A stretch of 44,548 nt of DNA from Candidatus Eiseniibacteriota bacterium (GTDB lineage: Bacteria; Eisenbacteria; RBG-16-71-46), in assembly GCA_031364845.1 (NCBI GenBank), contig JANLWX010000228.1, positions 1 to 44,548 on the forward strand, in the 5' to 3' direction. Made by a program: the position numbers and the translations under genes. Shown here piece after piece: positions 7,473-44,548 of the stretch (the stretch's first letter is position 1; every line of letters starts with the position of its first letter). The notes under the pieces are model-generated. The model was not told the origin of the DNA, did not search any database, and saw only the letters and a list, made by a program, of their open reading frames with translations.

Positions 7473-7476
7473 CGGA

Positions 7477-12393: not shown

Positions 12394-12502
12394 GGCAGGC
12401 TGGACCCTGACCGCGCAGCGTGAAGTCGACCGACAGGCTGGAGTAGGCGAAGTACCCTGGGCGTCCATGATAAGCCCCGGGCCCGGCGTTTCCAGTCGAC
12501 TT

Positions 12503-15458: not shown

Positions 15459-15530
15459 GGTCGTGATGCTCCTTCGGTGGCTGCTCGCATGACCGTCCCT
15501 GCACGGCGTCTCTTCTTAATGAGTAGCATG

Positions 15531-15559
15531 AGTTTACGCCGCCGCTCGTGGCGGATCAA
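15531..15559 (-). promoter_or_regulatory. Putative sigma70 promoter TTGATC-N17-TAAACT for the beta-helix gene
   Basis: Minus strand -35 at 15559-15554 and -10 at 15536-15531, about 70 nt upstream of GTG 15458. Confidence 0.5.
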
Positions 15560-15744
15560 CGTTCGAGTTGGTGTATCTGTCGGCGCTTCCTGGAAGCAGT
15601 AAGGAGGTTAGCCGCGGGCCACGCGCACGGGCGAAGGACTCGAGATCGACCTTTCCTATGGATTCCGCCTTCATCGGCTCCTATGATGTCGCATCGCTTC
15701 GGTCTGTTCGAAGCCGAGTGGAATCCCTATCCACTGAGGCAATC

Positions 15745-18108: not shown

Positions 18109-18121
18109 CCGGGGAAGTGCG

Positions 18122-18859: not shown

Positions 18860-18979
18860 GGTCTGGCTGCGGTCGACGCCTTCACACGGGCAGACTCATC
18901 GAGGTTCCCGAGGCGACGCAGGCGGGCAAGGCATGTGCGGTGCTCGCGGCTTCGGCATAGTCGATGACGGAACACGATG

Positions 18980-19009
18980 CATCGGGCGCCCGGACTGCGG
19001 CGCCCGATG
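18980..19009. terminator. Stem-loop between convergent genes
   Basis: Perfect 11-bp stem CATCGGGCGCC / GGCGCCCGATG with an 8-nt loop; no strong U-tract. Confidence 0.45.
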
Positions 19010-19042
19010 GATCATGGAACTTCAGCGGGAGCGGCGTGCTTC

Positions 19043-23494: not shown

Positions 23495-23517
23495 CGGTTC
23501 TCCGTCCATCATGGTCC

Positions 23518-25239: not shown

Positions 25240-25497
25240 GGTTCCGCCCGATGGAAATCGACCTGGTGCATTCACCGAAGCAGAACGATTCTGCGATGGG
25301 TGATCCGTTCGCCCGCGGCACGCACGCGCGCGCGAGGACCGGGGGTGTTCACAAGGGGCCTCCATGGCGGACGGGAGGCATGCGCCTCCCGTGGTCCGAT
25401 GGTTGATCGTGATCCGGCCTCAATGGTACGCCCGGTTCACCCTGAAGGCATCACAAATTCCGGACAGTAGCACCCCAAGTGCAGGGAACGCACCGTC

Positions 25498-28400: not shown

Positions 28401-30771
28401 CGTCGGACGACCACGCGATGTCCACGGCGCTCACCGAGACATCGTCGGTGGCGGTCCACGTGATCGGATGGACCGTCGTGATTCCCCAGTTCTCGCCTCC
28501 GGCTGGTGACGTCACGGCGACGACCGGTGCCAGCGTGTCCGGGGTGCCGGAGATGCTGAGCGTCTGCGCGTTCGAAGTGCCGCCTCCGGGTGCCGGCGTG
28601 AACACGGTGATCAGCCGGTTTCCGCCACTCCCCTGGTCGACGCCGGTGATCGTCGCGAGCAGCTGGTTTGGGGACACGAACGTGGTCACGCGATCCGAGC
28701 CGTCGAATCGCACCACCGAGCACGCGCCGAAATTGGCACCGTTCACCGTGAGCGAGAACTGGGGATCGCCCACCGAGCGGGATGCAGGAGCGATCGACGT
28801 GGTCGAGGCGAGCGGCTTGATGCTCGCCACTGCGAAGTCGTTGGCGCTCGACTGCTGTGCGTTGGTCAGCACGATCTGCACGTCGCTCGCGCTCACGCGC
28901 GTTTGCGTGGTGCCGCCGGAGCCGGCGATCGCATCGACGTTGGTGCCCCCGGCCGGTGCCGTCACGACAACGTCGTAGGTGCCGCTCTCGAGGTATCCGA
29001 AGCTGTATTGACCCAGCGCGTTCGTCGTCGCGGTCGCCACCGTGGCCGCGCCCTGCTTGAGCGCCACAGTCACGCCGGCGATCGCGCTGCGATCGGCTGC
29101 GGTGCCGGCGCTGCCATCGCAGTCGTCGGTCACGGTGCCGAACACCTGTCCATAGGTGAACGTGAGCTTGTTCACCCAGGTGCCGAACGCGTTCGTGGCC
29201 TTGGTCCACTGGCCCACGTACCACGCCGAGGTCGAGCCGGGCGTGAACAGCGATCCGTCCTGATCGATGCCCGTATAGTCACCCCAACGGGATTGCGCGG
29301 TGGCGGTGAGACCGGCCTTGAGCAGCGCGCTCGGCTGAATCGCGGCATCGCCGCGCCGCTTGCCGCTGGCGTACGCCGAAGGACGCTCGGTGGTGCTCGA
29401 GCGGCCGAACCCCAGGAAGATGGTGCCGACCGAGTCCACGATCACGGCCGGGTAGTAGTAGAACGTGCTGGCCTGGCCGAACGTCTCATCGGTCAGCACC
29501 GCGCGGTCACTCAAGCGCATGCGCAAGAGCCGGATCGCCGAAACGTTCGTGGCGCCGATGGTGGCCGCCGTGTGCCACGCGGCGATGAGCACGCCGCCCC
29601 GGGTGTAGAAGTCGGTCGGCCGGCAATCGTTGGTGGCGACGAGCGCTGCAGAGCCGAGCTGCGGCGCATCCGGTGGCGCGCTGTAGGCGCTGACCGTGAC
29701 GAGATTGACTGTCGCCAGAGTAGGAGTGGCGGGCGGGCCGGTGAGCGTGCGGTACGTCACACGTGATCCGCTGCCCGTTCGGACGCACAACAAGTGGATC
29801 GTGTTGTCGCCCGACGTCAGGTTGCGCGCCGGCTTCGTGACGAAGTTGTCGTTGGTGTCGCCACCCGGAGGCGCCGAGAAATTGGCGATGTCGACATAGG
29901 TCAGGACGGCACCGCTGTAGGCGGCGGCGCGGTCGAGAATGCGCAGCTTCTGGTATCGATACGAGTCGCCGGCGAACGTGAACTGCTGGCTGCTGAACAC
30001 GATCTTGTCGTCGGAGATACCAAGGCCCTGATAGTCCGCCCAGTTCGTGGTCTGGACCGCGCCGTCCTTGGACATGTCGAACTTGTACAGCCACCACGCG
30101 CCACGCGCATCGTTGGTCTTGGAAATGGCGAGGTAGAAGTTGGAGAAGTTACTGGGCGATGTGCCCTGCGTGAAGCACAGCGCGACGAACCGGCCGCGCA
30201 GGGCGTCGTAGTAGCACTGGGCATCGGAGATCGCGCCCTCGGCGGCGGGCACGCCGAAGAACGTCGCGCCATCGGTCTCGACACGGTTCGTTCCGTCCTT
30301 GTTGGTGACGGTGACGCTGACATTGCCCGCCGAGAAGATGTTGAGCGGGCCACCTCCCACGGTCGGCTCACTTGGAATGAAGCCGCCCTGCGTGATGCCC
30401 TCGAAGCCGACACCCAGCGTCGGTGCGAGCGGCGACAGGGAACCCTTTCCGCTCGAGGGCGTCGTATCGAGCGTGAACCGTGCGAACGATGTGGCCGGAA
30501 GGAACGGCGGATTCGCCTTGAGGCGATCGACTTCCTCCTGCGCCTCTTCCCACTCGTGCTCGCGCCGCAGCGTGATCGGAAGGCTCTCGGAACCCGGGGC
30601 GCGCGGCGGCAGGCGGTTGAAGTCGAATGAGCGCGGAGTGACACCCTCCGCCGCGATCTGGCGTACTCCCATGGGGCCCGCGGGCGTCACCGGCGGATCG
30701 AAGGCGGCGCGGGCCGGCGATGAGACGAGCAACATGAGCGCAAGTACGGCGAGCGGGGCGGGCCGGATCAT
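25498..30771 (-). CDS. Very large secreted modular protein: RWGDY-type propeller-like domain, prealbumin/SdrD-like, IPT/TIG, SPxGGE Ig domains, InlB-B-like repeats, beta-rich region, FlgD-Ig-like CTD
   Basis: Signal peptide MIRPAPLAVLALMLLVSSPARA from ATG 30771. Motifs YYDALRGRF, DYQGLG, SRWGDY; LTVNGANF..PAPGGGTSN; VTSPAGGENW and VTAPNGGETL; GAIAPSG/GSISPSG repeats; CTD VWPNP..GLYFVRL; 1757 aa. Confidence 0.9.
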   Translation of the reverse strand: MIRPAPLAVLALMLLVSSPARAAFDPPVTPAGPMGVRQIAAEGVTPRSFDFNRLPPRAPGSESLPITLRREHEWEEAQEEVDRLKANPPFLPATSFARFTLDTTPSSGKGSLSPLAPTLGVGFEGITQGGFIPSEPTVGGGPLNIFSAGNVSVTVTNKDGTNRVETDGATFFGVPAAEGAISDAQCYYDALRGRFVALCFTQGTSPSNFSNFYLAISKTNDARGAWWLYKFDMSKDGAVQTTNWADYQGLGISDDKIVFSSQQFTFAGDSYRYQKLRILDRAAAYSGAVLTYVDIANFSAPPGGDTNDNFVTKPARNLTSGDNTIHLLCVRTGSGSRVTYRTLTGPPATPTLATVNLVTVSAYSAPPDAPQLGSAALVATNDCRPTDFYTRGGVLIAAWHTAATIGATNVSAIRLLRMRLSDRAVLTDETFGQASTFYYYPAVIVDSVGTIFLGFGRSSTTERPSAYASGKRRGDAAIQPSALLKAGLTATAQSRWGDYTGIDQDGSLFTPGSTSAWYVGQWTKATNAFGTWVNKLTFTYGQVFGTVTDDCDGSAGTAADRSAIAGVTVALKQGAATVATATTNALGQYSFGYLESGTYDVVVTAPAGGTNVDAIAGSGGTTQTRVSASDVQIVLTNAQQSSANDFAVASIKPLASTTSIAPASRSVGDPQFSLTVNGANFGACSVVRFDGSDRVTTFVSPNQLLATITGVDQGSGGNRLITVFTPAPGGGTSNAQTLSISGTPDTLAPVVAVTSPAGGENWGITTVHPITWTATDDVSVSAVDIAWSSDGGASFPNPVAAGIANSGSFNWTVPSNLTTTARVRVLAYDNSGHVGSDSSHTNFAITGWTVTASAAANGAIAPSGAIVVPDGATPSFTITPNAGYRVQDVLVNGASVGAVTNYAFAPIHSDQTIAASFELDAYVLTLGTTGSGSVAAVPNQAQYNPGTNVQITATAAVGWHFQSWSGDASGTTNPLTVTMDANKNVVANFGQHIYTWNSTGTASWTTAANWTPSRTTPATDDVLLFNNGATTIATNVPTQTISQVLVSNNTNVTLQSSAAVTVTIAGGSGADLSVGAGSTLQLTGASAVTLALAGSATGDISGTTSLAGAAHRMVALGAGSLAYGTGSTFVAGTGFSGNPFGTGSGTSALNSVEFRSGSLYQHIAGANPFGAGAPSSVVTFLAGSRYRLDGSITPSMSGRTYADFEYNVLGAQSPTGGNPLTLDSLIVTRGTLNLNVTGGVQIRGDVHVKAAGILNLTPASAGAYTMSGTSPQSIDVQGAMTTNASATVGIANAADVSLVTDIALGGGLAFTSGRLTTGARKVSLSAASTVTGAGQGSGWVNGNLKKTYPAGAFSGTLPVGDASTYAPIDVSGTGAPAGFNLTAATTAGDHPNLATSMLDPARSVNRRYILAPASASGATWLATFNYAAADLDGTADPNAFQAQVWNGSAWSSLAINARTSTSTQVSGLTTSTAGTEFAIGNLPSYSITASAGAGGSISPSGVVSVVSNGSQAFSMLPDPGFQVLDVLVDGGSVGAPAGYTFSSVTTNHTIAVTFVDVQPPSIAVTAPNGGETLNAGSNTNITWTAADNAAVTTVDLELSRTGAGGPFESIASGLANTGTFDWLVSVPLTTHALVRATARDAAGLTAQDVSDAEFRISGSTGVFDGPVTDVALAPVWPNPVRGAVRFQYALPLESHVHLSVHDIQGRELMVLADGARAAGRHSVEWPDAGRVPLDPGLYFVRLKSTGRSIVQRFVIMR

Positions 30772-30989
30772 GGGGAGGCTTCCTGAGGGTGGGAGGCGGT
30801 TCTGTGGACAAGGGCACCCTCGCGGGGTCCGCAATTCTAGCCTTCCCGCCTCGACGCCCCAACGCTTTTCTCGCCTCGATAGGGCCCGTGCATTTCGTTC
30901 GCGAAGGAACTCCAGACGTGCGCGAAGATCGGGACAGCACCTGGATGTGAAGGATCCCGGGGACCCGACGAGGCCGTGATTCGAAGCGC

Positions 30990-31019
30990 TTGACAGCCAT
31001 GGCGGTGCGGGCGCATCGT
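30990..31019 (+). promoter_or_regulatory. Putative sigma70 promoter TTGACA-N18-CATCGT for the sugar operon
   Basis: Consensus -35 TTGACA at 30990-30995 and a weaker -10 at 31014-31019, directly followed by the operator. Confidence 0.55.
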
Positions 31020-31039
31020 TTGTTCGGCTGCCAAACAAA
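31019..31039. promoter_or_regulatory. ROK/XylR-type operator TTTGTTCGGCTGCCAAACAAA
   Basis: 21-bp dyad with 9 of 10 pairs complementary. Its TTTGTT...AACAAA arms match XylR-type ROK operators; it overlaps the predicted +1 and a ROK repressor gene is in the operon. Confidence 0.7.
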
Positions 31040-31113
31040 GCGGCCACCGAGCGATGCCCGCTCCGTTCGAACCTGCTCGCGCGTCAATTCCATCGAATGG
31101 TCGGAGAACCGGA

Positions 31114-32493
31114 ATGACCTTGAGAATTCCTGTCCGAATCGTGATTGTGATGGCTGCGTGCCTGGCGGCGTTTTCAGGTTGTTCGCGGCGCTCGCCCACC
31201 GAGGCGTGGCCGCCGATCGTCGACCCGGTCGTATTCACCGACGGGTTCGGAACGAATGTGGGCTTCCAGGCGTTCGGCGGTTCGAAACTCGACGCGCTGT
31301 CGATCGACGAGACCACGAAGTACGCGGGCACCGCTTCGCTGAAGTTCACCGTCCCCGCACCGGGCGACCCTTCGGGCGGCTACTCCGGCGGCGCTTTCGT
31401 GACGAGCCAGGCGCGAAGCCTTGCCCCGTACAACGCGCTGAGTTTCTGGGTGAAGGCCAGCAGGACGGCATCGCTCGAAGTGGCGGGTTTCGGCAACGAC
31501 AACACCGGAACATCGAGATACGAGGCGAAGCGGTCCGCGATCGCGATGACGACCGCATGGTCGCAGGTCCTGATCCCGATCCCGCTCGCGGCCAAACTCG
31601 AAGCGGAACGAGGGATGTTCTTTCTCGCTGAAGGACCGCAGGGCGGCGCCGGACTGACGATCTGGATCGACGAGGTGCGGTTCGTCAATGTCCCCACGGT
31701 CACGAATCCACGCCCGGTCCTGAACACCCAGACGCTCAACACCCTCGTGGGCGCCACGATCAATCTGGGGGGCACGACGAGGACCATCTTCAACATCGGC
31801 GGCGCCGACTTTGCGGTGACGCACCAGCCCGAATATTTTTCGTTCATCTCGTCCAATCCCGCCGTCGCCGCGATCTCCGGCACCACGGTTCGCGTGCTCG
31901 GGACCGGGACCGCAGCCATCACCGCGAAACTCGAGGCCACCGACGCCACGGGAACCATCACGTTGAACGTCACAGCACCCCCGGCCACCGCCGCTCCCGC
32001 GCCGACGGCTCCGGCGATCGACGTCATTTCGCTCTACAGCAATGCCTATACGAATGTGCCGGTGGACACGTGGTCCGCAACCTGGGATGTCGCTGAGGTC
32101 TCGGATCTCACGATCGCGGGCAATCCCACAAAGGTCTACACCAACCTGTCGTTCGCCGGCATCGAGTTCACGAACCATCTGATCAACGCGACCGCGATGG
32201 ACTTCTTCCACATGGACGTCTGGGTGCCGAGTGGCTCGACGTTCAAGGTCAAACTTGTGGACTTCGGCGCCGACGGCATCTTCGGCGGCTGCGCCAACTG
32301 CGGCGATGACCGCGAGCAGGAACTGACGTTCAACGCCGGATCAACGCCGGCGCTGGTCACGGGAGCGTGGGTCGGCCTCGACATCCCATTCACGAGTTTC
32401 ACCAATCTCACCAACCGGGCGCACCTCGCGCAGATCATCATCTCGGGCGATACCCGCACGGTGTTTGTGGACAACGTCTACTTCCACAAATAG
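31114..32493 (+). CDS. Lipoprotein with two galactose-binding-like carbohydrate-binding domains flanking a Big_2 Ig domain (beta-glucan-locus associated)
   Basis: GGAG SD, ATG 31114 and lipobox FSG-C. RSLAPYNALSFWVKAS..IWIDEVRF domain, SSNPAVA..GTAAITA Big_2, and DVISLYSNAY..FHMDVW..VFVDNVYFHK domain; 459 aa. Confidence 0.8.
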   Translation: MTLRIPVRIVIVMAACLAAFSGCSRRSPTEAWPPIVDPVVFTDGFGTNVGFQAFGGSKLDALSIDETTKYAGTASLKFTVPAPGDPSGGYSGGAFVTSQARSLAPYNALSFWVKASRTASLEVAGFGNDNTGTSRYEAKRSAIAMTTAWSQVLIPIPLAAKLEAERGMFFLAEGPQGGAGLTIWIDEVRFVNVPTVTNPRPVLNTQTLNTLVGATINLGGTTRTIFNIGGADFAVTHQPEYFSFISSNPAVAAISGTTVRVLGTGTAAITAKLEATDATGTITLNVTAPPATAAPAPTAPAIDVISLYSNAYTNVPVDTWSATWDVAEVSDLTIAGNPTKVYTNLSFAGIEFTNHLINATAMDFFHMDVWVPSGSTFKVKLVDFGADGIFGGCANCGDDREQELTFNAGSTPALVTGAWVGLDIPFTSFTNLTNRAHLAQIIISGDTRTVFVDNVYFHK

Positions 32494-32536: not shown

Positions 32537-33790
32537 ATGAATGAGCAGGCGCCGGGAACAAATGGTGCGAGGCGTGCGGGAGTGGCGCGGATGAACTCGC
32601 TCTCGCAGTCATTGTTCAGACTCATCTGGCAGGAACATCAGATCTCGCGCGCCGAGATCGCGCGGAACACGGGGCTGTCGCGCTCGACGGTCACCGAAAT
32701 CGTGGACGATCTGCTGCCGACCGGGCTGGTCGCTGAGGTCGGCGTCGGGCCTTCGCGCGGCGGCCGTCCGCCCATCGTGCTCGAGTTCAACTACGAGGCG
32801 GGTTGCATTCTCGGGGTCGACATGGGCGCGGCGCACGTGGCAGTCGCGCTGACCAACCTGCGCGGACATGTGCTGGCGTGGCAGCATCGGTTTCATCCGG
32901 TCCGCACCGATCCTGAAGGCACGCGCGCACTCATCGCAGAGCTGTGCGCCAAGTGTCTGGCCGAGATACCGGGGAGCCGCAAGCTGCTGGTCGGCATCGG
33001 CATCGCAGTCCCGTGCCCGGTCGATCCCCTGCATCCCGATCATCTCTCCGAGGTCGTGCTGCCCGACTGGCGTGGTCGTGGCGGTTTCAAACCGCTCGCC
33101 ACACGCTTTCGGGTGCCGCTGTTCGTGGACAACGACGCCAACCTCGGCGCGCTCGCCGAACGCTGGTGGGGCGCGGGGCGCGGGGTCGATGACTTCGCCT
33201 ACGTGAAGGTCGCAACCGGAGTGGGATCGGGGCACGTCCTTCAAGGCAAGGTTTACCGCGGGGCGACGGGCGTTGCCGGCGAGATCGGACACATGGCGAT
33301 CGATCCACACGGCAAGCCGTGCGTGTGCGGGCTGCGCGGTTGCCTGGCGACTCTGATCGGAGCTCCGGCCCTGGTCGATCGCGCGATCGAGTTGCGGGCC
33401 CAGTTTCCGAACAGCGTGCTGGCCACTGGCCATCTCACGATCGAGACGATCGAGGAAGCTGCGCTGGCCGGTGATCCTCTCGCCGCGCAGATCGTGACCG
33501 AGGCCGGTGGCAATCTCGGCATCGCGATCGCGAGCCTGCTCAACCTGATGAACCCGAGGCTCGTGATCGTGGGCGGCGGGATTTCGCGGCTCGGCGACCA
33601 GTTGCTCGAGCCGTTGCGCGATGTGATCCGCAGGCGGACCCTCGTGAGTTCGCTGGCCGTCGCCGAAGTCCGGACCAGCGAACTGGGCCCGCGGTCCACC
33701 GCGGTGGGCGCCGCGACCTATGTGCTGGATGCGGCGCTCGACGACTGCCGTTTGTTCCCATCCGCGTTCGACCCATCGAGGGCGGCATGA
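32537..33790 (+). CDS. ROK family transcriptional repressor (XylR/NagC-like)
   Basis: wHTH ISRAEIARNTGLSRSTVTEIV, GGRPP linker, DNDANLGALAE, GEIGH, CVCGLRGC Zn motif. ATG 32537 after GAGGGTG; 417 aa. Confidence 0.92.
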   Translation: MNEQAPGTNGARRAGVARMNSLSQSLFRLIWQEHQISRAEIARNTGLSRSTVTEIVDDLLPTGLVAEVGVGPSRGGRPPIVLEFNYEAGCILGVDMGAAHVAVALTNLRGHVLAWQHRFHPVRTDPEGTRALIAELCAKCLAEIPGSRKLLVGIGIAVPCPVDPLHPDHLSEVVLPDWRGRGGFKPLATRFRVPLFVDNDANLGALAERWWGAGRGVDDFAYVKVATGVGSGHVLQGKVYRGATGVAGEIGHMAIDPHGKPCVCGLRGCLATLIGAPALVDRAIELRAQFPNSVLATGHLTIETIEEAALAGDPLAAQIVTEAGGNLGIAIASLLNLMNPRLVIVGGGISRLGDQLLEPLRDVIRRRTLVSSLAVAEVRTSELGPRSTAVGAATYVLDAALDDCRLFPSAFDPSRAA

Positions 33791-34614
33791 TGCGAGGGCG
33801 CCGGGCGACCCTCCGGGCGATGGTGCCCTGCGTGTGCGCGCTCGCCGTCATCGCCTCGAGCGCCGGGTGTGCGAAGCACCCGACCAGGAACCAATGGAAT
33901 CTGGTGTGGCAGGACGAGTTCAACGGCCCCGCCGGACAGCCTCCCGATCCCGCGCGTTGGACGTACGACATCGGCACGGACTGGGGCAATGCGCAGCTCG
34001 AGTACGACACCGCGCGGCCGGAGAACGTCTCGCTCGACGGCGCCGGGAACCTCACGATCACGGCGCGCGAGGAGAGTTACGAGGGGCGAAACTACACCTC
34101 CGGTCGGATCAACACGCGCGGACGCTTCGAACAGGCCACGGGCCGGTTCGAGGCGCGCATGCGCCTGCCGAGTGGGCAGGGCCTGTGGCCGGCGTTCTGG
34201 CTCCTCGGATCCAACTTCGAGACCGCGGGCTGGCCGGCCTGCGGAGAGATCGACATCATGGAGTACCGCGGACAGGAACCGAGCCTGCTGCACGGCAGCC
34301 TTCACGGTCCGGGATACTCCGGCGGCAACGCGGTCACGCGATCGTTCGCGGTCCCGGGCGCCCCGCTCGATTCCGTGTTCCACGTCTTCGCGGTCGAATG
34401 GACCTCCAGCACGATCACCTGGATGCTGGATGACTCCGTCTACTTCACGGTCACACCGTCCAGCGTGCCGGGGTCGTGGGTGTTCAACCATCCGTTCTTC
34501 ATCATTCTCAATCTCGCGGTCGGTGGTGGTTTCGTCGGCGCTCCCGATGCCACTACGACCTTCCCGCAGCAGTTGATCGTGGACTACGTCCGCGTGTACC
34601 GACGCAGCCAATGA
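33787..34614 (+). CDS. GH16 endo-beta-1,3(-1,4)-glucanase (laminarinase-like), lipoprotein
   Basis: LVWQDEF, WGNAQLE, YTSGRI, GLWPAFW, catalytic GEIDIME, NLAVGG, VDYVRVY; lipobox SAG-C; ATGA overlap with ROK. Confidence 0.95.
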   Translation: MMRGRRATLRAMVPCVCALAVIASSAGCAKHPTRNQWNLVWQDEFNGPAGQPPDPARWTYDIGTDWGNAQLEYDTARPENVSLDGAGNLTITAREESYEGRNYTSGRINTRGRFEQATGRFEARMRLPSGQGLWPAFWLLGSNFETAGWPACGEIDIMEYRGQEPSLLHGSLHGPGYSGGNAVTRSFAVPGAPLDSVFHVFAVEWTSSTITWMLDDSVYFTVTPSSVPGSWVFNHPFFIILNLAVGGGFVGAPDATTTFPQQLIVDYVRVYRRSQ

Positions 34615-36296
34615 CCCTACGGGGCCTCACGGCATCGGCCGCCGCCATCGGGGCAATGGCGCTGTCGCTGCTGACACCGGGATGCGCCCGGTCCCGCGCG
34701 CCACTTCCGGATGGAATCCTCGTCGTGTCGCAGGAGCAGCAGTCGTCGTGGGTTCGCAATTTCAACCCGCTCACGACCGCGACTTCGGCCCGGTGGCCCA
34801 CATTGGCAGGCATCTACGAGCCGCTGTTCGTCTTCAACAGCGTGCAGGGCCGGCAGATTCCGTGGCTCGCGACCGCGAGCGAGTGGCTCGAGCAAAACCG
34901 GGTGCTGCGCGTCACGACGCGTGGCGGCGTGCTGTGGTCCGATGGAAGGACGTTCACCGCGCGCGACGTCGCGTTCACGTTCAATCTGCTCAAGCGCTTC
35001 CCGGCGCTCGATCGCCGCGGGGTGTGGGGATTTCTTTCGGCGGTGCGGGCGATCGACGATCGCACGGTGGACTTTCGGTTTTCGCGCGTGTTCATTCCGG
35101 GTTCGGACGAAATCGCGGCACAGCAGATCGTTCCCGAACACGGGTGGCGTGACGTCAAGGATCCGGTGGCATTCGCGAACGAGCATCCGGTGGCGACCGG
35201 TCCGTTCACCGAAGTGAGAGTTTTCAAGAACCAGGTCTACGAACTGGGACGCAATCCACATTACTGGCAACCGGGCCTGCCCAGAGTGGAAGCCCTGCGC
35301 TGCCCCGCGTTTCCCGGGAACGACCGCGCCAATCTGGCGCTCGTCTTCGATGAAGTGGACTGGGCGGGCAACTTCGTGCCGGCGATCGACCGGGTGTATG
35401 TCAGCCGAAAGCCCGAACATCACAAGTACTGGTTTCCACTCACCGGCAGCAGCATTTTTCTCTATGCGAACACCGGGAGAGCGCCGTTCAACGACGTGCG
35501 CGTGCGCAAGGCCCTCAGCATGGCGATCGACCGCGACCTGCTGGTGGATGTCGCGCTCTATCGATACTCCAAGCCGGCCGACGCCACCGGGCTCAGCGAT
35601 GCGTATTCGACGTGGCGTGATTCCGCGGCGGTCGCGAGCGGCGATTGGGTGCGCCACGACGTGGCACGCGCGTCCGCGCTGCTCGACGAGGCAGGATTCA
35701 AGCGAGGCGCCGATGGCAAGCGGCAACTCCCCGACGGGAAGCCGTGGCAGTACGAGATCCTCTGTGTCTCCGGCTGGTCCGACTGGGTGCGGGCGGCACA
35801 GGTGATCGCGCGCGGGTTTCAGGAGGTGGGCATCGACGCCACGGTGCGGACCTACGATTTCAGCGCGTGGTTCCAGCGCGTGCAGGAGGGCAACTTCGAT
35901 CTGAGCCTGGGCTGGTCGTTCGAGGGGCCGACCCCCTATACGTTCTACCAGTGGCTGATGGCATCCTCCACCGTGAAGCCCGCCGGCGTCGCGTCGATGG
36001 GCAACTGGCACCGCTATGGCAGCGCCGCGGCGACCCGGGCCCTCGCGGACTTCGAGCGCGAGGCCGACCCTGTCGCCCAGCGTCGCCTGTGCGCCGAGAT
36101 CCAACGCGTGTTCGTCGCCGAGGCCCCGGCGATACCGCTCTATCCCAATCCATCGTGGGCCGAATACAACACGAGCCGCATCGAGGGCTTCCCGTCGCGC
36201 GAAACCCCTTACGCGGATGCGTCTCCCAACAAGTTCGATCGCGGCGAACTGCTGCTGGTGCTGACGCGCATCACGCCCAAACCGGTGGCACGATGA
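34611..36296 (+). CDS. ABC transporter family-5 substrate-binding lipoprotein (oligosaccharide-binding OppA-like)
   Basis: Lipobox TPG-C, NFNP, WSDG..FTARDVAFTF, TGPF, VRKALSMAIDR, and GWSDW as in Thermotoga-type beta-glucoside binders. ATG 34611 overlaps the GH16 stop; 561 aa. Confidence 0.92.
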   Translation: MTLRGLTASAAAIGAMALSLLTPGCARSRAPLPDGILVVSQEQQSSWVRNFNPLTTATSARWPTLAGIYEPLFVFNSVQGRQIPWLATASEWLEQNRVLRVTTRGGVLWSDGRTFTARDVAFTFNLLKRFPALDRRGVWGFLSAVRAIDDRTVDFRFSRVFIPGSDEIAAQQIVPEHGWRDVKDPVAFANEHPVATGPFTEVRVFKNQVYELGRNPHYWQPGLPRVEALRCPAFPGNDRANLALVFDEVDWAGNFVPAIDRVYVSRKPEHHKYWFPLTGSSIFLYANTGRAPFNDVRVRKALSMAIDRDLLVDVALYRYSKPADATGLSDAYSTWRDSAAVASGDWVRHDVARASALLDEAGFKRGADGKRQLPDGKPWQYEILCVSGWSDWVRAAQVIARGFQEVGIDATVRTYDFSAWFQRVQEGNFDLSLGWSFEGPTPYTFYQWLMASSTVKPAGVASMGNWHRYGSAAATRALADFEREADPVAQRRLCAEIQRVFVAEAPAIPLYPNPSWAEYNTSRIEGFPSRETPYADASPNKFDRGELLLVLTRITPKPVAR

Positions 36297-37276
36297 GATT
36301 CCTGCTGCGGCGGCTCGGTTTCTACTGTGTCGCGGCGTGGGTGGCGCTGACGCTCAACTTCTTCCTGCCGCGCCTGATGCCAGGCGATCCGGCCACGGCC
36401 TTGTTCGCGCGCTTTCGCGGGCGCCTCGGGCCCGAAGCGCTGCAGGCGCTGCGTGAGACCTTCGGCCTCACCGACGCCCCGCTGTGGAGTCAGTACCTGA
36501 CCTACATCGGCCACGCCCTGCGCGGCGACTTCGGCATTTCGGTCGCCTACTTCCCGACGCCGGTCGCGCAGGTCATCGGCACCGGACTCCTGTGGACGAT
36601 CTTTCTCGCGGGCAGCGCGGTCATCGTGAGCTTCGCCATCGGCACTCTGCTCGGCATCGCCGCGGCCTGGTGGCGGCGTGGCTGGATCGACGCCCTGCTG
36701 CCCCCGTCGCTCGTGTTCATCGGTGCGCTCCCGTACTTCTGGCTCGCGATGGTTTCGCTCTACGTGCTCGGGTTTTCTCTGGGCTGGTTCCCGCTCGGTC
36801 ATGCGTATTCGGACGACCTGACGCCGAGCTTCTCCCCGGTGTTCCTCGCCGACGTCGCGGCGCACGCGGTGCTTCCGGTGGGCTCGATCGTCATCGCGAC
36901 CCTCGGCGGATGGCTGCTGTCGATGCGCAATACCATGATCACGATCCTCGGCTCGGACTACGTGAACCTCGCCCGGGCCAAGGGTCTCGATCCCGCCCGG
37001 GTCGTGCTGCGCTACGCCGCGCGCAATGCGCTGCTTCCGAGCATCACGAGTTTCGGCATGGCGCTCGGCTTCGTGCTCGGCGGATCGCTGCTCACCGAAG
37101 TCGTGTTCTCCTATCCCGGCCAGGGCTATCTGCTGGTGCAGGCGGTTCGCAGCCAGGACTATCCCCTCATGCAGGGAATCTTTCTCGTCATCACGCTCGC
37201 GGTGCTCGGCGCCAACTGGCTCGTCGACATCGTCTACCTGTGGCTTGATCCACGGATCCGGGATTCCGCGTCATGA
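36293..37276 (+). CDS. ABC transporter permease (OppB-like)
   Basis: FFLPRLMPGDP, DYVNLARAKGL (EAA), TEVVFSYPGQG, QDYPLMQG, LDPRIR. ATG 36293 overlaps the SBP stop; 327 aa. Confidence 0.93.
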   Translation: MRFLLRRLGFYCVAAWVALTLNFFLPRLMPGDPATALFARFRGRLGPEALQALRETFGLTDAPLWSQYLTYIGHALRGDFGISVAYFPTPVAQVIGTGLLWTIFLAGSAVIVSFAIGTLLGIAAAWWRRGWIDALLPPSLVFIGALPYFWLAMVSLYVLGFSLGWFPLGHAYSDDLTPSFSPVFLADVAAHAVLPVGSIVIATLGGWLLSMRNTMITILGSDYVNLARAKGLDPARVVLRYAARNALLPSITSFGMALGFVLGGSLLTEVVFSYPGQGYLLVQAVRSQDYPLMQGIFLVITLAVLGANWLVDIVYLWLDPRIRDSAS

Positions 37277-38214
37277 GCGCGCCGGGCAGCCCGCGCAGCA
37301 TCGGCATCGCGCTGTGGTGGGAGGCGATTCGCCGCGACCGCAAGGCGGGTATGGGGGCGGCGGTGCTTCTGGTATTCGCGTTCATCGCCCTGTTCGGCCC
37401 GCTGCTCGTCGGTGACCCGCAGGCACTGGTGGGCATCCCGCTCCAGCCGCCCTCGCTGCAGCACCTGCTCGGGACCACCGGCCAGGGCCAGGACGTGCTG
37501 ACGCAATTGGTGATCGGAACCCGCGTGTCGTTGCTGATCGGTTTCGGCGTGGGACTCGCGGTCGTCCTGATCGGAGCACTGGTGGGAGTGACCGCCGGCT
37601 TCTACGGCGGGCGCATCGACGGCCTGCTCTCCCTGTTGTTCAATGTGTTCCTCGTGATTCCGGGGTTGCCGCTCGCAATCGTGATCGCGGCCTACCTGCC
37701 GACGGGATCGTTCACCCTCGCGCTGGTGCTGATCGTCACGGGCTGGGCGTGGAACGCGCGCGTGATTCGCGCGCAAACGCTGAGCTTGCGCCAGCGCGAC
37801 TTCGTCGCGGCGGTGATCGTCACGGGCGAGTCGGATGCGCGCATCATCCTGAGCGAGATCCTGCCCACGATGACGTCGTTGCTCGTCGCTCAGGTCATCG
37901 GCAGCACGATCTACGCGATCGGCGCACAGGTCGGTCTCGAGTTCCTCGGGCTCGGCGATGTCTCGGCCGTGACCTGGGGCACCAACCTCTACTGGGCTCA
38001 GAACGATTCGGCCCTTCTCACCGGCGCGTGGTGGACCTTTGCTCCCACCGGAATCTGTGTCGCGCTGGTGGGGTTTGGCCTCAGCATGCTGAACTCGGGA
38101 TTCGATGAGATCACGAACCCCCGGCTCCAGCTCGAACGCGCATGGCGCGATCACCTCGGCCGGCACGGGATGAAGCCCGCGCGGTCCACTCCGGTGGTAC
38201 GGAACCATGACTGA
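37273..38214 (+). CDS. ABC transporter permease (OppC-like)
   Basis: HLLGTTGQGQDV, RAQTLSLRQRDFV, LEFLGLG, WGTNL, DEITNPRL. Confidence 0.93.
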   Translation: MSAPGSPRSIGIALWWEAIRRDRKAGMGAAVLLVFAFIALFGPLLVGDPQALVGIPLQPPSLQHLLGTTGQGQDVLTQLVIGTRVSLLIGFGVGLAVVLIGALVGVTAGFYGGRIDGLLSLLFNVFLVIPGLPLAIVIAAYLPTGSFTLALVLIVTGWAWNARVIRAQTLSLRQRDFVAAVIVTGESDARIILSEILPTMTSLLVAQVIGSTIYAIGAQVGLEFLGLGDVSAVTWGTNLYWAQNDSALLTGAWWTFAPTGICVALVGFGLSMLNSGFDEITNPRLQLERAWRDHLGRHGMKPARSTPVVRNHD

Positions 38215-39166
38215 ACCCATTCTCACGGTCCGCGACCTGTGCGTCGACTACATCACCGATCGCGGACCGGTGCGTGCCATCGACCGCGTGTCGCTCGAGG
38301 TGGGTCATGGCGAGATCCTCGGCGTCGCCGGTGAGTCCGGCAGCGGCAAATCGACCATGGCTCAAGCGCTGCTGCGAATCCTGCCTCCGCCCGCGGTGAT
38401 TTCCGGTGGCGAGGTTCTGCTCGGAAGCACCAATCTCCTCGCGCTGTCAGAACCGGAGTTGCGGGAGTTGCGGTGGAAGCGATTCTCGATGGTGTTCCAG
38501 AGCGCCATGGACGCCTTGAACCCGGTGATCACCGTCGGGGAGCAATTGATCGACACGCTGCAGGCGCATACGCCGATGAACGCGCATCAGGCGCGCGAGC
38601 GCGCCACGAAGCTGCTCGGCATGGTCGGCATTCCGCCGGCGCAACTCGACGCCTATGCCCACCAACTCTCGGGCGGGATGCGCCAGCGCATCGGTATCGC
38701 CATCGCGCTCACGCTCGAGCCTTCGCTCGTGATCCTCGATGAACCGACGACCGCGCTCGATGTGATCGTCGAGCGCGAGATCCTGGAGCAGATTCGCGAA
38801 CTTCAGACCCGTCTCGGCTTCTCGGTGATCTTCATCACCCACGACCTCGGACGGATGCTCCAGTTCTCGGACCGGGTCGCCGTGTTCTACGCCGCGCGGC
38901 TCGTCGAGATCGGGCCTGCCGATTCATTGCGCAACGCGCCCCGGCATCCGTATACGCAGGGGCTGCTGCGCGCGTTCCCCTCGTTGCACGGGGAATCGAC
39001 CGGCCGTGAAAGCATCGGGGGCGCGCCGCCAAGTCTGCAGAATCCGCCGCCTGGCTGCCGGTTCCACCCGCGCTGCCCGCTGGCGATGGACCGGTGCCGC
39101 ATCGAGCAGCCGGAACTGCTCGCAATCGAGCCGGAACATTCCGTCGCCTGCTTCGCGGTGCAGTAG
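38207..39166 (+). CDS. ABC transporter ATP-binding protein (OppD-like)
   Basis: Walker A GESGSGKST, LSGGMRQR, DEPTTALD, ITHD, HPYT, and C-terminal CRFHPRC..C..C cluster. Confidence 0.95.
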   Translation: MTEPILTVRDLCVDYITDRGPVRAIDRVSLEVGHGEILGVAGESGSGKSTMAQALLRILPPPAVISGGEVLLGSTNLLALSEPELRELRWKRFSMVFQSAMDALNPVITVGEQLIDTLQAHTPMNAHQARERATKLLGMVGIPPAQLDAYAHQLSGGMRQRIGIAIALTLEPSLVILDEPTTALDVIVEREILEQIRELQTRLGFSVIFITHDLGRMLQFSDRVAVFYAARLVEIGPADSLRNAPRHPYTQGLLRAFPSLHGESTGRESIGGAPPSLQNPPPGCRFHPRCPLAMDRCRIEQPELLAIEPEHSVACFAVQ

Positions 39167-39178
39167 CGGTATGCAGCG

Positions 39179-39208
39179 CGGGCGTGAGCCCTGAGGGACC
39201 CACGCCCG
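39179..39208. terminator. GC-rich stem-loop between convergent operons
   Basis: CGGGCGTG...CACGCCCG 8-bp outer stem with inner CCC-TGA-GGG, between stops at 39166 and 39234. Confidence 0.45.
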
Positions 39209-39233
39209 GATTACGGCAGTCTTCCCGCCTCCG

Positions 39234-42200
39234 CTACATCGCCAGCCGCACGTAGGTCCGGATCTCCCACTCGTTGCCGTTCGGGGAACCGTCGAAGCGG
39301 ATCCACTGGTTGGAGATCGTGTCGAGATACCGCTCGGTGTAGCGTGGGGTGTGCTCGTCCAGCGACCGCCACGTGCCGCGAACACCGATCCGGGTTTGAG
39401 CGTTGGTGTCGAACCACGTCGGAGCGCCCAGCGAATGGGACAGGTCGCCCATCAACTGGACCGGGTAGGTCAGGTTGAAATCCCGGTGATAGTCGTAGGT
39501 ACCCCAATCATTGAACTTGGCGAACGCGGAGAGGGTGGCGCTGCCCCCTGTAACTTTGAAGTCGGCACCCGAACGCGTGACGAGGCGCGGATCGTCGGAC
39601 AGACTGGGCTCCCCGGTTCCGTAGTAGGCGTGCGCCACGACGCGCACGCCGGTGCCAATGCGTGAGACGGCCCGCATGTTGATCTCCCACAGGTCGCGCG
39701 GCGGAGTCGAGCCGGCGAAGGCGAAGTATGCCACGCCGAACGAATCGGCCTGGGCCTCCGAGAAGAACCCAATAGCCGGATCCATGTTCGTCGGCATGTG
39801 GCGGTAGACGAAGCCGATGCTGCCGGCCAGGCGTGACTCCTCGCGAACATCGTTGTCCCACGCGTAGAGCCACGAAGCGGGCGTGGGATCGTAGCTGATG
39901 AGCAGCTCGGCGGCGGTCATCTCGCGGTTGGCGCGCACCGAGAACGGATCCTTGAAGTTGTCGCGCCAGATCTGCTTGTCGCGGGTCGCCTTCGCCGGAA
40001 TCGGACCGACAATGGGTTTCTGCCACCGGAAGTTGGGGCCGAACTGGAAGTGCCCCGAGTTGTAGGCAAAGCCGGTCAGGATGTTGCGCTGGTTCCCGAG
40101 GCCCAAGTCCTTGAGGGTCCAGCCGGTATAGGTCGCGGTCCCCGTCGGCCCGCCTTCGGCGACGATGCCCATGGACGCACCCTGCGCATACCATTGCAGC
40201 GGGCCGCGCGCCGCCGCGATACGAAACTTTCCGCCGAACGCATCCGCGGGATGAACGTAGTCGCGCAGGAACCTGTATGTGGTGTCCTCACGGACCGCTA
40301 CAGGGAAGTACTCATCCACGCGATTGGCCCCAGCCCAGATCCCTCCGGCCTCGAGGGTGAACGGACCGTGAGCCGTCTTGAGGTGAAGCGTCGTCTTCGT
40401 GGTCGGCAGAAGCCGGACACTGGTCGAACCAACGATCGTGAACCCGCTCTGGGTCGGCAGATCCTTCTCCACGACGGCGGTCGCGTCGAAGCGGCCGACC
40501 TGGCGGCGGTACTTGAACAACGCGGTCGGCGGCGCGCCCCACCACACTTGTGGTCCGAAGGCCGCCTTGAGCCCGCTCAGCGCCCGCTTGCCGCTCAATT
40601 CGAGACCGATCGGGGCCTCGGCATTGTAGATGTCGATATTGGGGCCGTAATTGGCTTCGCGGTAGAGCCCGAAGAAATCTCCCTCGTATCCCCAGTGGTA
40701 GTGGCCGGTCCGGTAGAAACCCTGCAAACCGAACCAGCGATCGTCCCAGCTCATGCTGGCCTGGTAGACCCGCACGCGCTCGTACCCTCCGGTCGTGACT
40801 CTATTGCCGTTGATGGTCGCGAGCGGCCGAATCGGCGAGCGATTCTCGTAGAAGATCTGATCGATCGGGTTATTCGGAACATTGCCCAGGATGTTGATGG
40901 AGAGATTGGCGGTCACGGCCGGCGACGGTTGCGCCTGGAAGTCCGTGTAGAACGACTGCAGGTGGTCGAAGCCCTGGGCCGAGGGCTGCTCGACTTTTTC
41001 GGGATCGCCGAGCCGGGGTGTGGTCACGAAGTGCCCGCCCGTGCTGATGGTTTCGAACTGCATGCGCACGCCGGACACGCGGACGCGCTCGAGGGCATTC
41101 GTTGCGAGTGCCGCGCGGTCGCCCCGCGCTTCGAGCGCGGATCCTCCCGGAGTGATCACCGCGAAATGCGCCCGGATGACTTCGCCGCTCGTCCCGGTCG
41201 CATAGGGATCGAGCGCGAACACTTTGCGCAGCGCGTAGTACGCCGCGCGCGGGTAGAGTTCGTACAGACCGCGGCTGTCCGGAGAGCCCTTGGCGCAGAT
41301 GCCCCACCACTCTTCGTTCATGTTGAACTCGCCCGCCACGAAGTCCTCGGGGTAGCCGGCATTGGGCCACGAGGCATTCGCGTCGTGGATGTCGAGGCGC
41401 TCTTCCTGCTTGTACTTCCACCAGCCATCCGACCACTGGAACACGCAGCCGCCGATCGCGTTGCCCTCCTGCCCGTGGCCTGCGCTCTTCTCGTAGATCT
41501 CGCGCCACAGCCCGATCAGGTAGCGCGCCTGCATCGGCTGGTCCTCGCGGAGGTCGCGCGCGTTAAAGGCATCGGAACCGAACTCGGTGTACATGACCGG
41601 AATGCCGAGCTTGTCCTTGACGACCTGGAACAGGTCGCGCGACGAGATGCCGCGATAGACATTCGTGCCCAGAATGTCGATGCCTTTGCACTCCTCTGCG
41701 ATCACGTCGATGTACTGGAGGTCGCCATTGGCGATGGCCACCGGCACATCGGGATCCTTTTCCTTCGTGGCACGAGCGATCTCGCCGAACAGCGAATACA
41801 GGAAACGCGCGCGGGCCACATCCCGCTCGCCCTTGGGCAGAGCCTCGATCTCGAACGAACTCCACGACAGTCCGTAGTTGTTTTCGTTGCCGAGCAGGTA
41901 CATCAGCACACCGGGGCAGCCGCGGTATTGCTGCATGGTGGCAGCGACGTCGGCGGCGATCGCGGCTCGCATGCGCGGATTGGAGTAATCGGTGTTCTGG
42001 TTCCACACGCCGTCCAGCGTGAAACCATAGCGGCCGACGGTGTGGTTGATGATGCTGTAGATCCCGTAGCGGTCGTGGATGTAGCGCACCCAGCGTGCCG
42101 GAATACCTGTGTAGACGCGGATGGCGTTGACACCCATTCCCGCCAGCAGTGACATCTCGCGGTCCAGCGCCGCCGTGATCATGTCCTCGGGTTGCTGCCA

Positions 42201-42439
42201 CAGGTTGTAGGCATAGTTCTGCCCGATCGGGATGTAGTCCCAGTTCATTCCCTTGACGAGAAAATCGCGGCCATCCACCTGCAGGCGCGAGCCCGTGGCG
42301 TCCGTGAGCACGGTTACCGGCTGTCGGCGGGCCGTGGAGTCGACCTGCGCCCTGGAGATCGCGGGCAACGCGACCAGCAGAATCGACAGCACAGCGAGGG
42401 TCGTGGCACTGGACTTCGGCTTGCGGGTGGCGAGCGGAA

Positions 42440-42443
<4 letters not shown>
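39234..42443 (-). CDS. Clan GH-A (GH2 TIM-barrel-like) glycoside hydrolase fused to a predicted outer-membrane beta-barrel
   Basis: Signal peptide; KGMNW, MGVNAIRVY, acid/base LGNENNY, nucleophile YTEFG, FQWSDGWWK, NEEWWGI. The C-terminal ~600 aa consist of amphipathic beta-strands ending EWEIRTYVRLAM. GTG overlaps the GH1 stop and follows AGGAG. Confidence 0.85.
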
Positions 42444-43831
<1,388 letters not shown>

Positions 43832-43834
43832 GGA

Positions 43835-44548
43835 TCAGTCCCGGGACGCCGGTACTGCGGGCGAGTAGAGATGGCAGCGCACGGAACGATCCCCCACCGC
43901 CCGCGGCTCGGGATCGGAGTTCCAGCACACATCGAGACGCTCCGGGCAGCGTGTCGCAAACGGGCAGCCCTGATCGTGCCGTCCCGCAGGCAGGGCCTGC
44001 GCGGGTGCCGCAGCGACCGCCCTGCGGTCGGTGTCGGCGATCGAGGCGAGCAGCGCGCGGGTGTAAGGGTGCGCAGGTGTGGCGACCACCTGTTCGCTGG
44101 GCCCATCCTCGACCAGGCGGCCCCGGTAGAGCACGAGGATGCGATCCGCGAGGTAGCGGGCCGAGGCCAGATCGTGGGTGATGAGCAGGATCGCAAGCCC
44201 GCGTTCGCGCTTGAGCTGGGCCAGCAGGTTGAGCACACCCATGCGAATCGAAACATCGAGCATCGAGGTCGGCTCATCGGCGACCAGGAGATCCGGTGCG
44301 ACCGCGAGCGCCCTTGCGATGGCGACCCGCTGACGCTGACCGCCAGAAAGCGCCGAGCCGCGCGTTCCCGCAGGTGTGTCCAGACCCAGCGGCATCGGAT
44401 CGACGAAGGCTGCAACTTCGGCATCCAGCAACACCTCTGCCAGCCGCGCCGGGTCACGGTCGGTCCGGCCAAGAAGCAGGTTTTCGCGCAGGGACTCATC
44501 AAACAGCGCTGCGTCCTGACTGACCGAGGCGAGAAGCGCGCGCTGGTC
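43835..44548 (-). CDS. Partial ABC ATPase: OppF-like C-terminal half joined in frame to an MsbA-like exporter NBD fragment (5' truncated by window end)
   Basis: Frame open from 44548: DQRALLASVSQDAALFDESLRENLLLGR..LGLDTPAGTRGSALSGGQRQRVAIARAL (exporter type), then AVAPDLLVADEPTSMLDVSIRMGVLNLL..ITHDL..HPYT..GCPFATRC..C..CHL (OppF type). Confidence 0.8.
   Translation of the reverse strand, partial: DQRALLASVSQDAALFDESLRENLLLGRTDRDPARLAEVLLDAEVAAFVDPMPLGLDTPAGTRGSALSGGQRQRVAIARALAVAPDLLVADEPTSMLDVSIRMGVLNLLAQLKRERGLAILLITHDLASARYLADRILVLYRGRLVEDGPSEQVVATPAHPYTRALLASIADTDRRAVAAAPAQALPAGRHDQGCPFATRCPERLDVCWNSDPEPRAVGDRSVRCHLYSPAVPASRD

Follow-up and report, generated by a model that had tools for sequence, protein, structure and literature searches.

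Laminarin-type glucans make up a large pool of fixed carbon, and published work on their uptake rests on SusC and SusD. In autotransporter enzymes such as EstA, the enzyme is a surface passenger that is followed by a helix and a 12-strand translocator; we know of no stand-alone barrel form of these proteins that is linked to sugar importers. Other outer-membrane barrels differ in strand number, with 16 or 18 strands in the ChiP porins according to one account (PMC13578368) and 24 in the usher PapC according to another (PMC10418385). Among glycoside hydrolases (GH), the TIM barrel of family GH158 is followed by a C-terminal Ig-like domain (PMC13195107). We have analyzed a gene that joins a clan GH-A hydrolase to a predicted 24-strand outer-membrane barrel. 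No description of this barrel was found in the mostly open-access main texts covered by our search; supplementary PUL tables or proteomes may list the gene. Published genes that may possibly be this one are the 'GH2' of Muricauda PULs (PMC13188888) and the 'GH158' of a Formosa agariphila PUL (bioRxiv 10.64898/2026.01.10.698779). The laminarin induction reported there is not counted as evidence here.

The window is a contig of 44,548 nucleotides from a Candidatus Eiseniibacteriota bacterium, and the features that concern us are the following (residue numbers are those of the fusion protein).

31019..31039, plus strand: palindromic operator-like site (matched by 16 of 100 shuffles when taken alone; its support is its position in relatives)
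31114..32493, plus strand: lipoprotein with CBM-like and Ig-like domains, candidate partner of the barrel (position of homologs in flavobacteria)
32537..33790, plus strand: ROK-family repressor (domain match)
33787..34614, plus strand: GH16 glucanase, lipobox read by eye (domain match)
34611..36296, plus strand: family-5 solute-binding protein, closest solved relatives being chitin-oligosaccharide-binding and other family-5 binding proteins
36293..38214, plus strand: two ABC permeases (domain match)
38207..39166, plus strand: ABC ATPase of oligopeptide/oligosaccharide type (domain match)
39167..39233, no strand assigned: hairpin between two convergent operons, probable terminator (z = -4.7; 0 of 200 shuffles fold as well)
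39234..42443, minus strand: whole gene of the fusion between GH-A hydrolase and predicted 24-strand outer-membrane barrel, 1069 aa (ORF call, homologs, AlphaFold)
39237..41084, minus strand: predicted 24-stranded outer-membrane beta-barrel, residues 454-1069, 616 aa (AlphaFold, VIA, alignment)
41085..41213, minus strand: helical linker, residues 411-453, with helices at 420-428 and 432-450 (AlphaFold)
41214..42317, minus strand: clan GH-A (beta/alpha)8 domain, residues 43-410, nearest to GH158 and GH157 (profile and structure searches)
41583..41585, minus strand: Glu287, predicted nucleophile, aligned with Glu229 of GH158(Pro) (alignment)
41883..41885, minus strand: Glu187, predicted acid/base, aligned with Glu143 of GH158(Pro) (alignment)
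42348..42443, minus strand: Sec signal peptide, residues 1-32, cut after Ala32 (read by eye; low pLDDT over residues 1-35)
42440..43831, minus strand: GH1 beta-glucosidase, no signal peptide seen, its stop overlapping the start of the fusion gene (TIGR03356 above cut-off)
43835..44350, minus strand: 3' part of a second ABC ATPase, whose true 5' part is on contig C138 (domain match and contig linking)

The GTG start of the fusion gene is preceded by AGGAG. The best 120 homologs of its product are 57-97% identical to it over 95-100% of the length, and a contig from a public run (X1 record 3, 39053-41519) bridges the junction between enzyme and barrel; the fusion is therefore neither a chance nor an assembly artefact. 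Judged from its predicted genes, the locus as continued on C138 is a beta-1,3-glucan catabolic cluster, with GH16, GH1, a GH149 phosphorylase on C138 (match to 6HQ6, E = 0), a family-5 ABC importer and a ROK repressor with operators. The second operator-like copy precedes the ATPase-GH1-fusion operon on C138 (L066 906-926). Since the enzyme-barrel gene sits in such a cluster, its product is probably a glucan channel, and the glucan substrate guessed in a prior sequence-only reading of this DNA is borne out by GH16, GH1 and GH149 here and by the beta-glucan hydrolases of related loci.

That reading had also noted a signal peptide, a GH-A TIM barrel with both catalytic Glu and a helical linker, all of which we find again. 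The acid/base (GNE, E187) and the nucleophile (TEFG, E287) are each kept in 141 of 144 aligned rows, and both are kept in all 114 full GH domains from the loci (104 by the strict motif, 10 by printed variants). Model and alignment together display the (beta/alpha)8 fold, Asn-Glu acid/base and Glu nucleophile of a retaining clan GH-A enzyme. A single-sequence PDB search with the target gave no match at E up to 1; the best profile matches are the GH158 structures 6PAL (1.4e-7) and 9ORO (3.9e-7). Foldseek ranks GH158 first and GH157 second, and the top VIA match is GH157 (LaGH157, 9FZ9/9G4N; Z 28-29, rmsd about 3, 310-313 aligned residues, 17% identity). By VIA, however, GH157, GH2 glucuronidases and GH158 are tied within about 1-2 Z, so the specificity of the enzyme rests mostly on gene context, which points to hydrolysis of beta-1,3-glucan.

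The domain resembles GH158 (BuGH158, 6PAL; the processive GH158(Pro), 9ORO; PMC13195107) in its TIM barrel, two Glu and kind of locus. Of the GH158 minus-subsite residues whose aromatic side chains select beta-1,3 linkages, Trp77 aligns with Tyr111 and Phe278 with Phe335; the positions corresponding to Trp236, Glu285 and Tyr291 are in poorly aligned stretches. Membership of GH158 is nevertheless rejected: a true GH158 encoded in these loci matches 9ORO at 2.3e-99, against the best profile value of the fusion enzyme given above, and the enzyme is only 24-27% identical to the locus-encoded GH158s, whose genes are separate from the fusion gene in some of the same loci. The C-terminal Ig-like domain of GH158 is also absent, the TIM barrel being followed by helices and then the barrel in the AlphaFold model. 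LaGH157 differs in being soluble and without a membrane barrel. Nor is this a GH2 enzyme, as PF02836 scores 20.3 bits (cut-off 21) and no flanking GH2 sugar-binding or Ig domain was matched. Some relatives of the fusion protein do pass the PF02836 cut-off, which explains the GH2 label. An automatic GH2 label over an unclassified GH-A domain had indeed been anticipated, and the subthreshold GH2 score and the want of family-level similarity to GH158 agree with it.

Two AlphaFold runs give the C-terminal region as a hairpin meander of 24 long amphipathic strands (pLDDT 93.8 and pTM 0.88 for the barrel model), in which one face carries turns mostly of 2-6 residues and the opposite face loops of 7-37. 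All of the top 50 VIA rows for this region are membrane barrels, none of them close. The strand count was calibrated on the VIA spans, in which 18-strand porins cover strands 1-18, TonB-dependent barrels 1-22 or 3-24, and ushers 1-24. Each of the 24 strands has a more hydrophobic and a more polar face in the alignment, a weak sign taken alone since the face was picked post hoc and alternation is also seen in two soluble hairpin strands. Close relatives usually end in M, L or I, with F or W at the end of 10 of 144, and six stand-alone barrels end in F, so that the C-terminus is fairly called beta-signal-like, as it had been. The even number of amphipathic antiparallel strands, the short turns and long loops, the signal peptide and the terminal strand are together those of an outer-membrane beta-barrel, as predicted from the model. 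The porin-like barrel proposed from the letters thus has its counterpart in the modelled topology and in fold searches that return only membrane barrels; its ten quoted segments all lie on long strands, but the strands number 24 and not about 20. Many GH-A enzymes carry CBM or Ig beta-sandwich modules, and a soluble string of these would be an ordinary C-terminal region for such a protein; it is the result that had been named as counting against a barrel, with AlphaFold as the check. The models, the fold searches and the named ESM Atlas neighbours of one stand-alone member (mostly porin or outer-membrane families, taken as leads only) all point to a membrane barrel, and we give the soluble alternative practically no weight.

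The barrel family, for which databases have no entry, forms 414 clusters when grouped at 50% identity. Its members occur in Eisenbacteria, Krumholzibacteria, Myxococcota, Cloacimonadota, Gammaproteobacteria and Flavobacteriaceae; within the host phylum 54 of 151 genomes encode it, and within a flavobacterial family 46 of 201. Enzyme-free barrels with their own signal peptide occur in 22 of 80 metagenome loci (14 distinct at 90%, 6 at 60%). Their homology extends along the entire barrel (hhalign E 5e-87); they begin strand 1 directly after the signal peptide with no N-terminal plug, and gave no family above cut-off in Pfam scans. Sixteen of the 22 adjoin a related family-5 binding protein or GH16, and a channel is therefore favoured over a mere anchor. 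Loops L5, L7, L13, L15 and L21 and a 21-residue turn, T16, are long and conserved; conserved Trp, Phe, Tyr, Asp, Glu and Arg lie in L5, L7, L15, L21 and T16, and the same loop residues are conserved in barrels with and without the enzyme.

These observations bear on the side of the membrane on which the enzyme lies. The barrel could serve as an autotransporter or anchor, with the linker helix passing through the lumen and the glucanase displayed outside the cell. The order of N-terminal enzyme, 19-residue helix (long enough to span a membrane) and C-terminal barrel is that of EstA-type autotransporters, and a soluble relative of the GH domain (L064) bears a FlgD-type tail, as do secreted proteins of these loci. 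Against such display are the 24 strands in place of 12, the lack of an autotransporter Pfam match (PF03797) in the fusion protein, the retention of enzyme-free barrels beside importers and the loop residues conserved whether or not an enzyme is attached. In addition, five VIA alignments extend beyond residue 460, and four of them stop within short turns (at 568, 569, 747 and 855), although short-turn residues make up only 59 of the 616 in the barrel; a second VIA pass, with the complete model as query, added none that reaches the barrel. This indirect clue from the model suggests that the enzyme is on the short-turn, periplasmic side. Periplasmic trimming is favoured over surface display only indirectly, and we regard display as unlikely.

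Gene neighbourhoods were surveyed in 57 loci of 12 kb or more, near-duplicates included, with flanks of at most 8 kb. A beta-glucan GH is present in 55 of them; an ABC or MFS importer is present in 34, and none was detected within the fetched flanks of the other 23. One of two partner lipoproteins, never both and with no SusD match, occurs in 45 of 57. A homolog of the lipoprotein at 31114..32493 lies directly 3' of the fusion gene in all 20 flavobacterial loci. The host genome gave no member of the small partner lipoprotein family, and a single-sequence PDB search with the partner lipoprotein gave weak, irrelevant matches only. Eight of the 20 flavobacterial loci have a SusC/SusD pair upstream in the same cluster, and thus the barrel is not always a substitute for SusC/D. 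In the first locus set, SusC was found in one of 146 loci (L057) with the SusC profile, which could miss other receptor types. The host genome (97% complete) has no SusD, LamB or OprB match and, by a PF00593 search, 15 TonB-dependent receptors, none of them on this contig.

The barrel might instead be closed and act as a glucan-binding receptor or scaffold, either resembling Wzi or docking secreted enzymes and the partner lipoprotein; it might also be a sensor. Import would then be left to other channels. Its long conserved loops could fill the lumen, Wzi, a carbohydrate-binding barrel by description, is among the VIA rows (Z 12.3), SusC/D pairs co-occur in the 8 flavobacterial loci, and the host's TonB-dependent receptors could import the glucan. 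Such a role accords poorly with the linked inner-membrane importers and the near absence of SusC from the first locus set, and a periplasmic enzyme would serve no evident purpose if the barrel above it were closed; we hold this role to be slightly less likely than surface display.

An energised or gated importer, in which TonB or substrate would displace a plug formed by the GH domain or T16 and the lipoprotein would be a SusD-like lid, would fit a barrel larger than SusC, a whole-protein model whose pTM of 0.84 suggests defined domain packing, and the fixed partner lipoprotein. In 10 of the 20 flavobacterial loci, moreover, the fusion gene comes directly after a LuxR-type regulator, a slot that susC holds in the others. 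Such an importer is made improbable by the plugless stand-alone barrels, the lack of a PF00593 match on the contig and the absence of a recurring TonB/ExbBD gene among the annotated neighbour clusters. Export of a beta-glucan made by the cell itself, which the GH would trim or transfer as in alginate or cellulose secretion, is more improbable still. The export channel AlgE is the best VIA row (Z 14.3, rmsd 7.6, 316 aligned) and the GH149 reaction is reversible according to PMC13188888, but AlgE lies within 1 Z of import porins, the neighbouring genes serve catabolism and are controlled by a sugar repressor, and no synthase or glycosyltransferase, as expected beside exopolysaccharide channels such as AlgE, BcsC and PgaA, was seen among the recurring annotated neighbour clusters (flanks at most 8 kb).

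The explanation that we favour, with some confidence, is a TonB-independent porin for glucan oligosaccharides with a periplasmic trimming enzyme, in which transport, an open pore and the side of the enzyme are our inferences. The fusion protein would be the outer-membrane entry step of beta-1,3-glucan uptake. By homology, surface or secreted GH16-type enzymes would cut glucan to oligosaccharides, which may then diffuse through the 24-strand barrel, its lumen narrowed by the conserved long loops and free of a TonB plug, while the partner lipoprotein may catch substrate at the mouth. The tethered retaining GH-A domain, its fold and catalytic residues assigned in silico, is presumed to lie under the barrel in the periplasm and to shorten incoming glucan chains, so that the gradient stays inward. 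Homology also suggests that the family-5 ABC transporter, or an MFS protein in other taxa, brings short oligomers into the cytoplasm; their breakdown would be completed there by GH1 and the GH149 phosphorylase under ROK control. The barrel is probably an unrecognised channel for algal and fungal beta-1,3-glucans in many kinds of bacteria. If it is a true channel, it would add a second import route to SusC/D and explain glucan loci without a TonB-dependent transporter; with a hydrolase coupled to a passive channel, polymer uptake could be driven at no energy cost in the outer membrane. Its recognition would also correct a widespread GH2 mis-annotation. Cultured flavobacteria share this gene order, and the idea should be testable there.

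A more tentative proposal, which we think somewhat doubtful, is that these proteins make up their own class of outer-membrane glycan importers, the third after sugar porins and SusC/D: 24-stranded, TonB-independent, taxonomically widespread and hidden under the GH2 label in laminarin loci, with a built-in periplasmic glucanase that cuts beta-1,3-glucan on its way out of the channel and so pulls it inward, and with an interchangeable surface lipoprotein. LamB, ChiP, OprB and CymA (PMC13578368) resemble our favoured model in leading from a passive oligosaccharide channel to a periplasmic binding protein and an ABC importer; they differ in that ChiPs have no attached enzyme, and the barrel here (7-9% identity, TM-scores near 0.25) is not a LamB/ChiP/OprB sugar porin, having 24 strands rather than 16-18 and no family profile match. 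With SusC/SusD it shares a large barrel, an adjoining lipoprotein in a glycan locus and, in half of the flavobacterial loci, the slot after the regulator. Identity with SusC or another TonB-dependent transporter is rejected on 24 strands as against 22 plus a plug, the plugless stand-alone members and the lack of a PF00593 or TIGR04056 match in the fusion protein, and the two systems co-exist in the 8 flavobacterial loci. The ushers PapC and FimD likewise have 24 strands and align from first to last strand by VIA, but at 6-9% identity and rmsd 5-7; the barrel model lacks their mid-barrel beta-sandwich plug and C-terminal periplasmic domains, and neither chaperone nor pilin genes, nor any pilus genes, appear among the annotated neighbours. 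EstA-type autotransporters are alike in domain order, although a type Va assignment is rejected on the strand number and PF03797 result given above. Finally, the MFS-GH17 fusion of Formosa (PMC6246565) also unites a transporter and a laminarin hydrolase in one chain, the transporter there being a helical inner-membrane protein and not an outer-membrane barrel.

The enzyme-barrel fusion is real: the target is an ORF of 1069 aa on the minus strand, its GTG start codon overlaps the stop of the GH1 gene, and its enzyme/barrel junction is bridged by one public-run contig. The source genome is 4.6 Mb and 97% complete. Both motifs of the sequence-only reading (GNE187, TEFG287), its ten quoted strand segments and, by eye, the signal peptide were all found in the target. 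Features referred to below are:

39234-42443 (-): target, signal peptide, GH-A TIM barrel, helical linker and predicted outer-membrane barrel
31114-32493 (+): window-type lipoprotein, candidate partner, CBM-like/Ig-like
1102-7367 of L066 (G000:C138), another contig of the same genome: continuation of the locus, encoding a GH149 phosphorylase and two secreted FlgD-tail proteins, divergent from the operon of ATPase, GH1 and target

A search with the target for proteins of similar length gave 5583 matches among 7999 candidates scored; at least 120 relatives, among those listed, are 57-97% identical to it over 95-100% of the query. The nearest named relatives among the matches listed are Candidatus Eisenbacteria, the probable host group. 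Of 151 genomes from the target's own phylum, 54 contain the barrel; of 201 from a family containing a Polaribacter record, 46 do. The fusion is widespread and apparently undescribed; no description of this barrel was found in the literature searched, which included PMC11345257, PMC6298971, PMC12175321, PMC13578368 and bioRxiv 10.64898/2026.01.10.698779. The nearest conceptual precedent in that literature is an MFS-GH17 fusion (PMC6246565). A Muricauda PUL (PMC13188888) has a 'GH2' at a matching position, which may be the same gene. Variant forms also occur. Protein P0238 is a longer fusion with a CBM4/9 module ahead of the GH domain, and P0127 (1351 aa) has an N-terminus resembling a second GH-like domain. 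At spirochaete locus L064 (7935-12582) the GH domain stands alone as a secreted protein with a FlgD tail. A divergent barrel-like gene of 704 aa lies ~1 kb downstream, so that the locus possibly holds a split form of the fusion.

The GH-A active site is intact in silico: 141 of 144 aligned rows retain both catalytic Glu, as do all 114 full GH domains of the fetched loci (residue roles from PMC13195107). GH158 was the first match of the family profile search, and Foldseek ranked GH158 ahead of GH157. Any structural claim on specificity is weakened because structural alignment (VIA) tied GH157, GH2 glucuronidases and GH158. Some loci carry a separate, true GH158 gene (match to 9ORO, 2.3e-99), with which the fused domain shares only 24-27% identity; on this comparison the fused domain would therefore work like GH158 but stand outside that family as filed.

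AlphaFold modelled the whole chain with mean pLDDT 89.3 and pTM 0.84 (144 sequences), and residues 412-1069 with pLDDT 93.8 and pTM 0.88 (146 sequences). The model runs from a TIM barrel (43-410) through two helices to 24 long strands, joined on one face by turns of 2, 3, 6, 2, 2, 2, 2, 21, 4, 2 and 13 residues and on the opposite face by loops of 7 to 37. Searches against Pfam and NCBIfam gave no match to the barrel. Membrane barrels made up 50 of the 50 top VIA rows and every Foldseek row listed, which, with the 24 strands, favours the porin-like barrel first proposed over soluble beta-sandwiches; the top VIA match is distant (Z 14.3, rmsd 7.6), with identity at most 12% across matches. The strand count is calibrated, since VIA ranges track the strand numbers of known barrels: alignments to 18-strand porins extend over strands 1-18, those to TonB-dependent barrels over 1-22 or 3-24, and those to FimD and PapC, both ushers, over 1-24. 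The strand numbers of OprD-type porins, FhuA and PapC are those given in PMC10418385. The architecture and the 24-strand barrel are thus shown in silico, as predicted models.

Two indirect clues favour a periplasmic enzyme: in stand-alone barrels strand 1 begins just after the signal peptide, and of the five VIA alignments that continue beyond residue 460, four stop at short-turn residues. An autotransporter-like arrangement is also possible, given the 19-residue linker helix. With the favoured periplasmic placement, the tethered enzyme would trim glucan in the periplasm.

The context of the target is, in silico, beta-1,3-glucan catabolic. It closes an operon made up of an ABC ATPase gene, GH1 and the target itself. 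Across a strong hairpin this operon converges on a second encoding a lipoprotein, a ROK repressor, GH16, a family-5 binding protein, two permeases and an ATPase. A palindrome lies upstream of both operons, and of 146 loci 28 contain a match to its pattern, in most cases shortly before the gene for GH1 or the ATPase. The last 200 bases of the window appear mis-joined, the true upstream DNA probably being C138: at 44316-44548 an oligopeptide-type ATPase switches to ABCB-like sequence at a ~36-nt shared stretch, 44083-44350 matches C138:1-268 at 96.6%, and the public contigs listed either stop at 44351 or begin at 44316. One of the two C138 FlgD-tail proteins is conserved in 17 loci.

Elsewhere in the window, 14004-31047 encodes a series of large secreted proteins whose C-terminal tails are of FlgD or T9SS type, the host not being a member of Bacteroidota; their domains are beta-helix, lamin-tail and Ig, SBBP and laminin G, and choice-of-anchor Z. 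At 15568-18859 an 846-aa lamin-tail/Ig ORF overlaps a 266-aa FlgD-tail ORF by ~50 nt, and the two may be one frameshifted gene. An FHA, PP2C and Ser/Thr kinase cluster (3945-12468), whose PP2C carries a fused beta-helix domain, ends with a RodA/FtsW-penicillin-binding protein fusion of 1200 aa.

The 57 loci that are 12 kb or longer include near-duplicates and so are not independent. A beta-glucan GH occurs in 55 of them, an ABC or MFS importer in 34, and one of two unrelated lipoproteins in 45, no locus having both. The second lipoprotein, of about 160-280 aa and with no Pfam match, is encoded immediately 3' of the barrel in 65 of the 110 loci having a downstream gene (e.g. L025, L046, L061, L104); it was never seen with the window-type lipoprotein. 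Both lipoproteins are candidate partners of the barrel.

The 97% complete host genome gave no SusD, LamB or OprB match and holds 15 TonB-dependent receptors. Regions of 20 kb were compared from 20 of the 46 flavobacterial genomes that contain the barrel. In all 20 the fusion gene is followed by a lipoprotein gene and then GH16, and GH149 is present in 18. SusC/SusD lie upstream in 8, a LuxR-type regulator directly precedes the fusion gene in 10 (two checked), and the remaining regions have an intervening gene (one) or are cut at the contig end (one). The barrel can therefore stand with or without SusC/D, which counters its simple replacement of that pair. Where both occur, short oligomers may pass through the barrel and long ones through SusC.

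Whether the barrel is a channel or an anchor can be judged from enzyme-free relatives. A profile built from seven short members, of which six have a clear signal peptide, found, in the best 80 of 256 metagenome loci, 22 barrel genes with no enzyme domain in the gene or nearby; they cluster into 14 groups at 90% identity and into 6 at 60%, and one cluster bears the database names Pseudomonadales and Oceanospirillaceae. They align over the target's whole barrel and share conserved loop residues with it. A related family-5 binding protein adjoins ten or eleven of them and GH16 adjoins 11; one or other is beside 16 of 22, the rest lying mostly on short or cut contigs. Since the link to a sugar importer is kept after loss of the enzyme, transport is the best reading of the barrel's role. 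Import through it would be passive. The target belongs to none of the SusC, usher or autotransporter families; although it also belongs to no known porin family, it would work like a sugar porin combined with a periplasmic hydrolase.
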